DNA of 64,000 bases, taken from NCBI RefSeq assembly GCF_056712565.1, contig NZ_CM160072.1. One strand, 5' to 3'. The position numbers are program-made. Shown piece by piece: positions 27,001 to 30,000 of the stretch (position 1 is its first letter; each line of letters opens with the position of its first letter).

Positions 27001-30000
27001 CAACCAGATGAACTTCGGTATGGTTGACTTGTTCTGCCAGTTCGATCGTCTCTTTGACCAGTTTTTCATTGAGCGCATTATGGTACGGCTCTTCACTGGC
27101 GAGATTCACCGCCACCAGCGCCTTACCCCCTTCCGGCCACGGCTGGTCTTTCACCATCCACACCGGGCTTGGGCATTTGCGTAACAGATGCCAGTCCGTT
27201 GGCGTAAAAATCACCGCTTCCAGACGGTCATGTTGGTGCGCCATTTTTAGCACCAAATCGTGCCCGCCGCTGATCACTTCCTGAATGATGGCTTCGAAAG
27301 GACGGTTATGCCAGACCACTTTAATTTCAATGGGAACGCCAGCATTGAGATAATATTTTGCCTGCTCGTGGATCCAGGCTGTACGCTGGCTGATGACGCC
27401 CTGACGCATAGCGGTACGTTCGTCCGGAGAGAGCAGGGTGGTCATTTCGTATGAGAAGTCATAGATCGGCAAAAAGGCTTTAATTTTGCCACCAATCCGT
27501 TGATGTAAATAAACAGCTCGCCGCAATGCTGGTTGGTCGTCCTGGTTAGGATCGATAACAACGAGCATGTTCTGATACATAGCCATACAGGGTCTCCTTA
27601 CAACAACTGTCAACGCAGTTTGTAATTAAAAGATTAACCCATATCTGGTGAATGAAACAGTGATGAACCTTCTGTCAGATCAATAAATCAGAAAAATTTA
27701 ATGATATGACAGAAGGATAGTGAGTTATGCGGAAGAATCAGGCAACGTTACGCGTATGACCAGCAAGCTGGGCCAGCGCATCGTTATTTTCGATAGTGAT
27801 GTATTTACCTTTGACTGCCAGCATACCGCTTTTCTGGAAGCGACCCAGCAGACGGCTGATGGTTTCAACCGTCAGGCCCAGATAGTTACCGATATCACCA
27901 CGAGTCATCGTCAGGCGGAATTCACGAGGGGAGAAGCCGCGTTGGGCAAAACGACGGGACAGGTTGTAGATGAATGCAGCCAGACGTTCCTCGGCATTTT
28001 TCTTCGACAACAGCAGGATCATGTCCTGATCGCCTTTGATTTCACCGCTCATCAGACGCATCATCTGCTGACGCAGATTCGGCATTTTACCAGACAAATC
28101 GTCCAGCGTTTCGAACGGGATTTCACATACCATCGAGGTTTCCAGCGCCTGCGCGAAACTCGGGTGATGACCGCTGCCGATGGCATCAAATCCCACCAGA
28201 TCGCCTGCTAAATGGAAACCAGTGATTTGCTCGTCGCCTTGCTCAGTGATGGTATAACTTTTAATCGTACCGGAGCGGATGGCATAAAGCGATTTTAGTT
28301 CATCTCCAGCCTTAAACAGCGTCTGGCCTTTCTGAATAGGCTTCTTCCGCTCAATGATATTATCAAGCTGATCAAGCTCATGTTCGTTGAGTGTGAACGG
28401 GATGCAAAGCTGGCTGATGCTGCAATCCTGGCAATGGATAGCACAACCGCCAGACTGAATGCGCCGTATAATTCGCTTTTCCGGGATCATAGGTCTGCTC
28501 AAGCCGTAATTGATATTTGTCAATTTTAACATCTTTTTAGGGAGCAAGTAAGTCTAAGCAAACCTTAACAGCAGAGAATTCCGATATTAGATGTAAATAT
28601 ATGTCTATCTATTTGAAAACCCTTAAGTTGTTAAGGGTGACTTTACATAAAAGTGTGAACAAGCTGGCACAAATTGTTTAATGTTTACAGCAAAAGATAA
28701 CCTTCGTGGCGCAATAACCACTCTTTTCGCTGAACTCCGCCTGCATATCCGGTCATGGTGCCGTTTCGGCCAATAACCCGATGGCAAGGTACGACGATGC
28801 TGATGGGATTCGATCCGTTTGCCGCACCAACGGCACGCGCCGCGCCAGGGCGGCCTAATTGTTCAGCCAGTTGGCCATAATGCATTACCTGCCCGCAGGG
28901 GATAGTGCGCAGTGTTTTCCAGACTTCGCGCTGAAATGGCGTCCCCCCCGTGGCAGTGGGAAGCGTATCAATAATGCTAAGATTACCGGCAAAATATTCA
29001 CGAAGCTTGTCGCTTAAACCACCTGGGTTGGTGGCAGAAATGCGCTCATAGCCTTCTTTGCGATAATGGATGTCCAGCAGCTGCACCATGCGTTCGCTGT
29101 ACTCTTCCCATTCAACCGCCCGCAGGCGAAATTGCTCATCGCAAATCACCCACAGTGGACCCAGTGGCGTGGCAATTTTTTCTTCAAGTAATCTCAGCAT
29201 CCGTTCTCTCTTAAGACAAACGTGGGTAAATACCCGGACCTATCGGCAAGCCAACAAGATACCACGCCAGCAACATCAGCAGCCATACCACCAAAAAGAT
29301 TAATACTAACAAAAAGTAAGTACCAGGTTTCGCGTCTGGTTTGTCGCAGTATTTAAGCATAAAGCGATTTTTTGATTTTTCTGCCTGAAGAAATGAGGGC
29401 AAGCCATCACATGGATCGAGGGTGGGATAATTCCAGTCAGCGAAATTTTACCGTAGGCTATCTGTTATTTGATTCTGTGGCGTGATAGCCGCCAGACACC
29501 ACTGATCTCGTCACTCATTCCCCAATCCCGGCGAGAATGTGGTTATTTACAGAGCTAAAAAATGAATAAAAAAATAGAGCCTGTCGACATCCGCCAGACT
29601 CTACAGTACACACAGCAGTGCATCCTCGTCTTAAATCCGGCCTGGGGTCCTGGTGACCGGTGACAGTGTTATAACGGTTTTACCCATCCGTTGCCAATTT
29701 TCTTCAGTGACAGATTTCACGAAAATATAAGTTAAATCATTTGCCTTGTGATTGCATAATCATGCATCGTTAATCGACGAGTAAATTTACCGGGCGAGTA
29801 GCCCGTTCGACGCTTAAACATATTGCCGAACGATTCAGCTGAGGCATAGCCCAGACGATGGGCAATTTTGGTCAACGAATATCCATCATCAAGAAGCGTC
29901 ACTGCAGAAATAACGTGCATTTGCTGAACCCAGTGGCGAAATGTTAATCCCGTCTCTTTAACAAATAAGCGCATGAGTGTACGGCTACTGACGTTAATTT

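Follow-up and report, generated by a model that had tools for sequence, protein, structure and literature searches.

An FNR autorepression operator and an Escherichia coli-specific inverted repeat in the ogt-fnr intergenic region

The level of FNR needs to be set tightly for oxygen sensing, and the inputs to the fnr promoter (Pfnr) are therefore of some interest, while the FNR operator of fnr itself is textbook knowledge. In Myers et al. 2013 (PLoS Genet), fnr showed an FNR ChIP-seq peak and repression, and it is entered in Table 1 of that work with one FNR site, centred at -0.5 and repressed, citing Mettert & Kiley 2007. The title of the latter paper (J Bacteriol 189:3036) names IHF as involved at Pfnr. 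A further input has been described for the LysR-type regulator YfeR, which is reported to bind a 150-bp fnr promoter probe and to repress fnr (PMC11227560, Nat Commun 2024).

The window analysed here, that is the whole stretch of 64,000 nucleotides, belongs to a non-K-12 E. coli strain whose entire fnr core promoter is identical to that of MG1655, and MG1655 coordinates are obtained by adding 1371036 to the window position (the offset was taken from the MG1655 annotation). The ogt-fnr intergenic region holds an FNR box and a palindrome, with both genes on the minus strand (Table 1), and in 74 of the 80 species of the synteny comparison ogt is the gene immediately upstream of fnr. The SMRT-Cappable-seq supplement yields both the start site and the transcript end of fnr, so that the 5' UTR runs for 26 nt from 28516 to the ATG at 28490; no site coordinates were found in the RegulonDB-derived supplements of PMC4280137. 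An E-value-based Rfam scan of 28000-29300 turned up nothing but a sub-threshold match to greA-leader on the plus strand, with a score of 20 bits (gathering score 60) and E = 0.69, which was treated as chance.

Table 1. Features of the ogt-fnr region, with positions in the window and, where signed, relative to the fnr transcription start site (TSS)
Feature	Position	Strand	Sequence or size	Remarks
fnr CDS	27738-28490	minus	250 aa	ORF list and RefSeq annotation of identical DNA
fnr ATG	28490-28488	minus		
FNR operator	28510-28523	minus	TTGACAAATATCAA = ttgatatttgtcaa = TTGACaaatATCAA	centre at -0.5 from TSS
fnr TSS	28516	minus	A (+1)	SMRT-Cappable-seq supplement: b1334 TSS at MG1655 1399552, reverse strand
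Extended -10 element	28523-28531	minus	TGtTAAAAT	-15 to -7, read off relative to the mapped TSS
Conserved motif, (A/T)TCAA-N3-GAT(A/G)	28606-28618	minus	TTTCAAATAGATA	-102 to -90
FNR-like 14-mer	28613-28626	.	TTGAAaaccCTTAA	3 mismatches, centre at -103.5
TTTT run, candidate U-tract	28616-28619	minus	UUUUCAAAU on ogt RNA	directly after the 7-bp stem
Palindrome as ogt RNA	28619-28638	minus	ACCCUUAAcaacUUAAGGGU	8-bp stem and 4-nt loop
Palindrome	28620-28637	minus	cccttaagttgttaaggg	7-bp arms, -104 to -121
ogt CDS	28685-29200	minus	171 aa	ORF list and RefSeq annotation
ogt stop codon	28685-28687	minus	TAA	

The initial annotation had combined both motifs in one promoter feature, and its description of the layout is borne out: the motifs are present at 28510-28523 and 28620-28637, 19 nt separate the FNR box from the fnr ATG downstream of it (about 20 bp had been given), and the centre of the palindrome lies 112 bp further upstream (about 110 bp). 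The two are, nevertheless, unrelated things under one heading. At the operator itself, FNR reportedly leaves a footprint, with binding and repression when the box is intact. The box agrees with TTGAT-N4-ATCAA at nine of the ten specified positions, overlaps the TSS and adjoins the -10 element of the promoter, a placement that is compatible with repression. A match to the consensus is not decisive by itself, since seven matches with at most one mismatch were observed in the 64-kb window where 3.2 were expected; the box is taken as real because of its position and conservation, the form TTGA[CT]-N4-[AT]TCAA being present in all 80 scannable sequences of Enterobacterales with hardly any variation in its spacing to the ATG. 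The -10 element sits in the block AAAAAGATGTTAAAA, which is nearly invariant across the Enterobacterales sequences compared, whereas the -35 region is poor, and for this reason the promoter was not called by a two-hexamer scan. Since the site spans the TSS and adjoins the extended -10 element, the [4Fe-4S]-FNR dimer bound there would exclude RNA polymerase, which would result in negative autoregulation under anaerobiosis. The sequence TTGACaaatATCAA is thus almost certainly the published, already known FNR autorepression operator of Pfnr, with its position and conservation established in the present comparison and its binding and repression taken from the literature. The earlier assignment of an FNR autoregulation site is upheld also by the published promoter data, as the TSS map and the single repressed site of Myers et al. 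2013 both place it at -0.5.

As for the palindrome, the perfect 7-bp arms noted at first are extended by the repeat search to 8-nt arms (28619-28626 and 28631-28638) with 4 nt between them. The dyad CCCTTAA/TTAAGGG has half-site centres 11-12 bp apart, about one helical turn, and its own centre is located 46-47 nt downstream of the ogt stop codon on the same strand. The initial annotation was silent on the minus-strand orientation of fnr and on the location of the palindrome at the 3' end of ogt, followed by TTTT. Perfect inverted repeats with 7-bp arms and a 4-nt loop occur five times in the window, with 5.35 expected from first-order Markov simulations (with loops of 0-10 nt, 73 occur against 50 +/- 10 simulated). 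The palindrome is, in this respect, statistically ordinary and no more than chance gives. Such counts favour the explanation, held to be a real but not the leading possibility, that it is a functionless inverted repeat that arose by chance in AT-rich intergenic DNA of the E. coli lineage, the real role of the surrounding DNA being the binding of IHF just downstream, independently of the dyad.

The comparison between species and strains points the same way. The inverted repeat, located in the upstream portion of the fnr promoter, is specific to E. coli: E. albertii, the divergent lineage Escherichia E69, Salmonella and Citrobacter all lack the palindrome, although E. albertii and E69 do possess its left arm, CCCTTAA. 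Within E. coli, the stem-breaking allele TTAATGG is carried by 265 of 5399 genomes (about 5%, including E. coli C and O104:H4), and a second arm mutation, TCCTTAA, was found independently of it in 11 genomes, so that the dyad is broken in at least 276 genomes, with no compensating change for either mutation. Across 31 species no covariation was found in the stem, and pairing was observed in 45.6% of cells, compared with 40.7% in shuffles and 45.2% when the stem was slid by one base. The palindrome columns are low in information, whereas the neighbouring TCAA...GAT columns are invariant. All of these observations suit a chance repeat; against it may be set the exact preservation of 35-36 nt around the palindrome in 93% of the E. 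coli genomes, a weak argument that says little because of E. coli divergence at this level.

It had been proposed that the palindrome could bind another dimeric regulator, and non-conservation had been named beforehand as the outcome that would refute this. Non-conservation is what was found, in the closest sister species and, as polymorphism, within E. coli, for a repeat that is statistically ordinary; very likely, then, the palindrome does not represent a conserved operator of some dimeric regulator. The concrete candidate for a non-FNR dimer acting there is YfeR, and such an operator is considered unlikely, despite arms of 7-8 bp and a half-site spacing that would suit a helix-turn-helix dimer. 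In PMC11227560, 1-10 nM YfeR was reported from an EMSA with competition controls to bind the 150-bp Pfnr probe, and the pfnr cloning primer TTACCCTTAACAACTTAAGGGTTTT begins 150 bp upstream of the ATG, at the palindrome; if the EMSA probe shares the limits of the primer, the whole palindrome would be contained at the distal end of the probe. However, the binding in that work refers to the whole 150-bp probe, and the palindrome, 2 bp away from the end of such a probe, would make a poor choice of bound site. Moreover, the palindrome gives T-N10-A, a misfit to the T-N11-A box of the LysR family, and better T-N11-A dyads are located elsewhere in the 150 bp, such as TAAGgtttgCTTA near -51. Any dimer operator has also to be reconciled with a dyad that no other species possesses while fnr, its core promoter and the synteny with ogt are kept, that has one arm broken in about 5% of E. 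coli strains, and that is no commoner than chance. A likeness to NarL heptamers was looked at by eye only and not taken further: the K-12 arms TACCCTT and AACCCTT were set against TACYYMT, their spacing is 7-8-7 instead of 7-2-7, and both miss position 6.

The most likely activity of the palindrome, in our estimate at somewhat below even chances, is that of a weak and dispensable Rho-independent terminator on the ogt transcript, for which it is regarded as a candidate. Past the stop codon, the ogt RNA would fold into a hairpin of 8 bp whose base is made up of three G-C pairs and which runs into UUUU; this hairpin would stop a part of ogt transcription before the IHF site and Pfnr, short of fnr; such partial termination may occur. 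The predicted stability of the hairpin is -8.2 kcal/mol, compared with -3.3 +/- 1.6 for shuffled sequences (z = -3.0, one of 200 shuffles being as good), and with three G-C pairs among the 8 bp of the stem it stands at the weak end of the range within the window. A TTTT run follows the palindrome on the ogt-sense strand only, while the same run is also a part of the conserved TTTCAA motif. Motifs of a hairpin with a T-tail that are equal or better occur in the window at 0.35 per kb on each strand, which gives an expectation of about 0.05 for the 130-nt 3' region of ogt; the joint occurrence of the strand, the distance from the stop codon, the G-C base of the stem and the TTTT, expected about 0.05 times, counts against a chance repeat.

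Several searches for termination at this place returned nothing. The terminator scan, in which at least five T in eight bases were needed, did not call the hairpin because there are four T in eight, the U-tract being short of about 5 U. For MG1655 13996xx, the curated Term-seq tables of RNA 3' ends in Adams et al. 2021 list no 3' end, and ogt has no entry in them, which is a weak negative given the low expression of ogt under the conditions used; no ogt transcript is listed in the SMRT-Cappable-seq data; the want of a mapped 3' end at the hairpin, together with that of covariation, is what a chance repeat would give. At the same place, E. albertii, the divergent Escherichia lineage and Salmonella give a fold of 0 kcal/mol, and the TTAATGG allele folds to -1.6 kcal/mol; therefore, selection for the terminator is weak or absent. 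Among the 74 syntenic species, a hairpin with a T-tail is found at that place in E. coli only, and unrelated hairpins with T-rich tails are found between ogt and Pfnr in several other genera (Enterobacter, with -15 kcal/mol, Kosakonia and Pseudescherichia), which speaks in favour of the terminator reading. The candidate terminator is called dispensable because the hairpin is missing both from the sister species and from about 5% of the strains of E. coli, and a purely neutral origin without measurable effect is nearly as likely as the terminator reading. On the whole, the evidence points to a dispensable, lineage-specific element. An improbable reading takes the palindrome for a regulatory element recently gained by the fnr promoter in E. 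coli alone, either an operator (for repression of fnr by YfeR or another dimer) or a terminator that would insulate Pfnr and the IHF site from nitrate-induced ogt transcription. In that event, the TTAATGG allele of about 5% of strains (E. coli C, O104:H4) would alter the FNR levels in those lineages, and it is only as a strain-variable insulator or operator changing fnr expression that the palindrome would matter.

A comparative by-product of the analysis is that the element conserved upstream of Pfnr is TCAA-N3-GAT; the palindrome and the upstream FNR site are both unconserved. IHF is said to bind the upstream region of Pfnr. The positions T31, C32, A33, A39 and T40 of the motif are invariant in 31 species, with varying flanks, and T[CT]A[AT]NNN[GC]AT is present in 60 of the 80 sequences scanned, where about 0.03 would be expected per sequence. 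The E. coli form, TTTCAAATAGATA, is the best match in the fnr promoter to the IHF core consensus WATCAANNNNTTR, with two mismatches; most Enterobacteriaceae have one or two, and in the many relatives with one it is always the first T of TTR. To judge from this match, TTTCAAATAGATA is probably the core of a predicted IHF site, which the palindrome abuts immediately on the 5' side.

The same stretch bears on the statement that the palindrome is not FNR-like, which holds for the dyad itself, as it is no FNR box, but not for its surroundings: the promoter-side arm and the T-run together make the 14-mer TTAAGggttTTCAA, with three mismatches to the FNR consensus and its centre at -103.5. In the older literature this 14-mer figures as the 'predicted upstream FNR site', which FNR reportedly does not bind either in vitro or in vivo, IHF being bound there instead. 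A second FNR operator at this point, cooperating in autorepression with the one at -0.5 (for example, by looping), is accordingly very improbable. Its centre precedes that of the main site by exactly 103 bp (some ten helical turns), Kluyvera has a perfect TTGATacatATCAA at the equivalent position, and the common E. coli variant TTAATGG raises the left half-site to 4/5. However, the E. coli 14-mer has three mismatches, and sites as weak as this are found at a frequency of 1.2 per 200 bp; from species to species the left half-site is free to vary and is unconserved, the site being perfect only in Kluyvera, and the TCAA that is kept and the GAT downstream of it fit IHF and not FNR. In addition, one FNR site is assigned to the fnr ChIP-seq peak by Myers et al. 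2013.

Compared with the described systems, the palindrome shares with weak Rho-independent terminators the G-C-based stem-loop, the U-run, the sense strand and a position soon after the stop codon, and it differs from them by having only 4 U, no mapped 3' end and no conservation; the uspE terminator in the same window, with -15.3 kcal/mol and ATTTTTT, may be set beside the -8.2 kcal/mol and 4 U of the palindrome hairpin. With regard to the YfeR repression of fnr (PMC11227560), the primer-defined pfnr fragment starts at the palindrome, and the T-N11-A spacing is missing there. As for the FNR site predicted at -103.5, its poor left half comes from the palindrome arm that faces the promoter, and in relation to the IHF-bound upstream region of Pfnr, the dyad CCCTTAA/TTAAGGG falls outside both the IHF and the FNR consensus and has not been kept along with them. 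The FNR box, in turn, is the same element as the E. coli fnr operator (Mettert & Kiley 2007, J Bacteriol 189:3036; Myers et al. 2013), without any difference.

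The species of the window is E. coli: the 321 bases under study have counterparts of at least 99% identity in 5384 of 5426 complete E. coli genomes, whose annotation for this stretch is the ogt-fnr intergenic region. Both fnr and ogt lie on the minus strand and, therefore, the region is to be read on that strand, in the order of the ogt stop, 46-47 nt, the palindrome, TTTT, about 100 bp, the fnr promoter (Pfnr) and fnr. The FNR box and the palindrome, whose centres are 112 bp apart, were both located in the sequence where the initial annotation had placed them. MG1655 coordinates are obtained by adding 1371036 to those of the window, and a single base differs across the region, at 28639, immediately beyond the palindrome. 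In 74 of 80 species ogt immediately precedes fnr, so the ogt-fnr region is orthologous. On the other side of ogt (29211-31672; assigned as annotated for the identical DNA of strain SK1144), abgT, which is intact in K-12, persists in the window strain only as a 3' remnant, followed by an AraC-family regulator, an HlyD-family protein and a frameshifted DHA2 MFS efflux gene.

Coordinates of the features in and around the ogt-fnr intergenic region
Feature	Window coordinates	Strand	Remarks
palindrome between uspE and ynaJ, AGGCCCGAgttaTCGGGCCT	26596-26615		
fnr transcript end	27662		MG1655 1398698
fnr	27738-28490	minus	ATG 28490-28488
FNR box	28510-28523	minus	ends 19 nt before the fnr ATG
fnr TSS (+1)	28516		MG1655 1399552
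-10 element TGtTAAAAT	28531-28523	minus	placed relative to the TSS
CTTAC motif	28546-28552	minus	about -36 to -32
second imperfect palindrome, TAGATAGACATAT/ATATTTACATCTA	28588-28611		centre near -83.5
conserved motif, TTTCAAATAGATA	28618-28606	minus	-102 to -90; adjoins the palindrome on the promoter side
FNR-like 14-mer, TTAAGggttTTCAA	28626-28613		three mismatches; centre exactly -103.5
palindrome	28620-28637		28619-28638 counting an extra A-T pair
ogt	28685-29200	minus	stop TAA 28685-28687

The FNR box agrees with TTGAT-N4-ATCAA in 9 of 10 positions; as the window has seven matches this good in all against 3.2 expected, the match by itself proves little, and the context is the decisive part of the assignment. 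The box is centred at -0.5 relative to the fnr TSS of the SMRT-Cappable-seq supplement (PMC6131387), and Table 1 of Myers et al. 2013 (PMC3688515), who cite Mettert & Kiley 2007 for it, lists for fnr a single FNR site at -0.5, repressed, with a ChIP-seq peak. The box begins with the promoter-distal T of the -10 element; an FNR dimer bound to it therefore spans +1 and lies directly against the -10. Among the 80 Enterobacterales loci of the comparison set, retrieved via FNR, the box, the block AAAAAGATGTTAAAA and the CTTAC motif near -35 show almost no variation between Escherichia and Yersinia. By its position, conservation and published entry, the autoregulation site proposed initially is real and is the known fnr autorepression operator, with nothing new in it. 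The CTTAC motif makes a poor -35 hexamer, yet hardly varies across the order, and may be under a constraint other than sigma-70. The SMRT-Cappable-seq data place the end of the fnr transcript about 76 nt past the fnr stop and label it a novel TTS; the hairpin-plus-T-tail scan gave no terminator-like motif there.

The palindrome, as a dyad, is an ordinary string: perfect inverted repeats of this type (arms of 7 bp, loop of 4 nt) number 5 in the window, where first-order Markov simulations give 5.35. In the species comparison, an ungapped alignment anchored at the main FNR box, the dyad is restricted to E. coli; the sequence at its position is CCCTTAAtaatTTAATAT in E. albertii, CCCTTAAcaatTTAAAGC in a divergent lineage of Escherichia that was deposited under the name E. 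coli E69, CCAACGAataaaTTAAGTA in Salmonella and yet another in Citrobacter, and the sister sequences fold as RNA at 0 kcal/mol. The palindrome columns are low in information across 31 species, and its eight stem pairs are formed in 45.6% of cells, against 40.7% for shuffled partners and 45.2% for a one-base register slide. Of 5399 E. coli genomes, 5029 match exactly across the 36 nt surrounding the dyad, and 370 show changes. In the main variant, carried exactly by 265 genomes, among them those of E. coli C and O104:H4, TTAAGGG becomes TTAATGG and the hairpin goes from -8.2 to -1.6 kcal/mol. The second, CCCTTAA to TCCTTAA (11 genomes), retains a G-U pair, and neither carries a compensating change. 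Confined to E. coli and varying in its arms without compensation, the palindrome is thus not a conserved regulator site. Lack of conservation had been named in the initial annotation as refuting its suggestion that another dimeric regulator could bind there, and this suggestion is not supported.

Repression of fnr by YfeR, a LysR-type regulator, and its binding to a Pfnr probe of 150 bp are reported in a 2024 paper (PMC11227560), and the pfnr cloning primer of that work, TTACCCTTAACAACTTAAGGGTTTT, begins exactly at the palindrome, 150 bp upstream of the ATG. However, the palindrome is unlikely to be the YfeR operator, because the site within the probe is unmapped and the dyad neither fits the T-N11-A LysR box nor is conserved; better T-N11-A dyads also occur elsewhere in the fragment.

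The promoter-side arm and the T-run compose the FNR-like 14-mer TTAAGggttTTCAA, and such sites with three mismatches occur at 1.2 per 200 bp. From its sequence, it is recognisable as the literature's 'predicted upstream site' of Pfnr, which is reportedly not bound by FNR. The initial description of the palindrome as not FNR-like is only half right, as the dyad overlaps this pseudo-FNR site with one arm. Of the site, species share no more than the TCAA half, with a perfect FNR box there in Kluyvera alone. In the two Kluyvera loci (L018, L019), the perfect boxes TTGATacatATCAA and TTGATatatATCAA lie at about -103.5 from the predicted fnr TSS, and the upstream site may be functional in this genus.

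The adjoining motif TTTCAAATAGATA has invariant TCA and AT positions in 31 species. A scan from -135 to -60 picked up the pattern T[CT]A[AT]NNN[GC]AT in 60 of 80 sequences, where chance would give about 0.03 per sequence; most have it at about -100, the Enterobacter group at -90 and the Kosakonia/Phytobacter group at -113. The motif has two mismatches to the IHF core consensus WATCAANNNNTTR in E. coli and one in many relatives; it is probably an IHF core, with the dyad on its 5' flank. IHF is said to bind the upstream region of Pfnr and to raise its expression. That IHF contributes to fnr transcription is stated in the title of Mettert & Kiley 2007. Among the fnr loci L001-L067, the form (A/T)TCAA-N3-GAT(A/G) is conserved, with 60 of the 80 scanned sequences having it, while its surroundings diverge; from one genus group to another, its distance from the TSS shifts stepwise by about 10-13 bp. 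The second imperfect palindrome is 80% complementary; its left arm is the conserved AGATAG, and its right arm is retained only within Escherichia.

On the ogt transcript the dyad reads ACCCUUAAcaacUUAAGGGU followed by UUUC or, alternatively, a 7-bp stem followed by UUUU, with three G-C pairs at the stem base adjoining the U-run. Its energy of -8.2 kcal/mol was equalled by 1 of 200 shuffles, and the T-run follows the dyad in the ogt direction only. Hairpin-plus-T-tail motifs of at least this quality occur at 0.35 per kb per strand in the window and, therefore, about 0.05 are expected in the 130-nt stretch from the ogt stop to Pfnr. The stem-base pairs, the energy, the direction of the T-run and this low expectation suggest, as the likeliest reading, that the dyad may be a weak, lineage-specific Rho-independent terminator of ogt, which would reduce the transcription running on into the IHF site, Pfnr and fnr. 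A neutral inverted repeat without measurable effect comes close in likelihood. The terminator scan makes no call at the dyad, and the U-tract is short; an RNA 3' end at the dyad is absent from the Adams 2021 Term-seq tables, as are ogt transcripts from SMRT-Cappable-seq. Sister species and 5% of strains have naturally lost the hairpin, which shows that it is dispensable. The palindrome is at best a weak, dispensable ogt terminator within the reportedly IHF-bound upstream region of Pfnr.

By the same criteria, unrelated hairpins with T-rich tails lie between ogt and Pfnr in some other genera, and none in most. The Enterobacter group (loci L030, L034-L037, L040, L043, L052) has a strong hairpin, e.g., GGAGATGGCAACTCGCTGCCGTCTCT (-15 kcal/mol), followed by a T-rich tail; it occupies -86 to -61 relative to the fnr TSS, with the IHF-like motif on one side and the fnr core promoter on the other, and E. 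coli lacks it. Elsewhere in the window, the hairpin-like strings CGGTGGTATTGCCGCTG and CCGTCGTTGTTGACGATGG recur every ~440-1600 bp on the minus strand of 53300-57050, a recurrence that indicates a putative long gene with internal repeats. The palindrome AGGCCCGAgttaTCGGGCCT between the convergent uspE and ynaJ is G+C-rich, folds at -15.3 kcal/mol with T-runs nearby and is probably a bidirectional terminator, strong where the ogt hairpin is weak.
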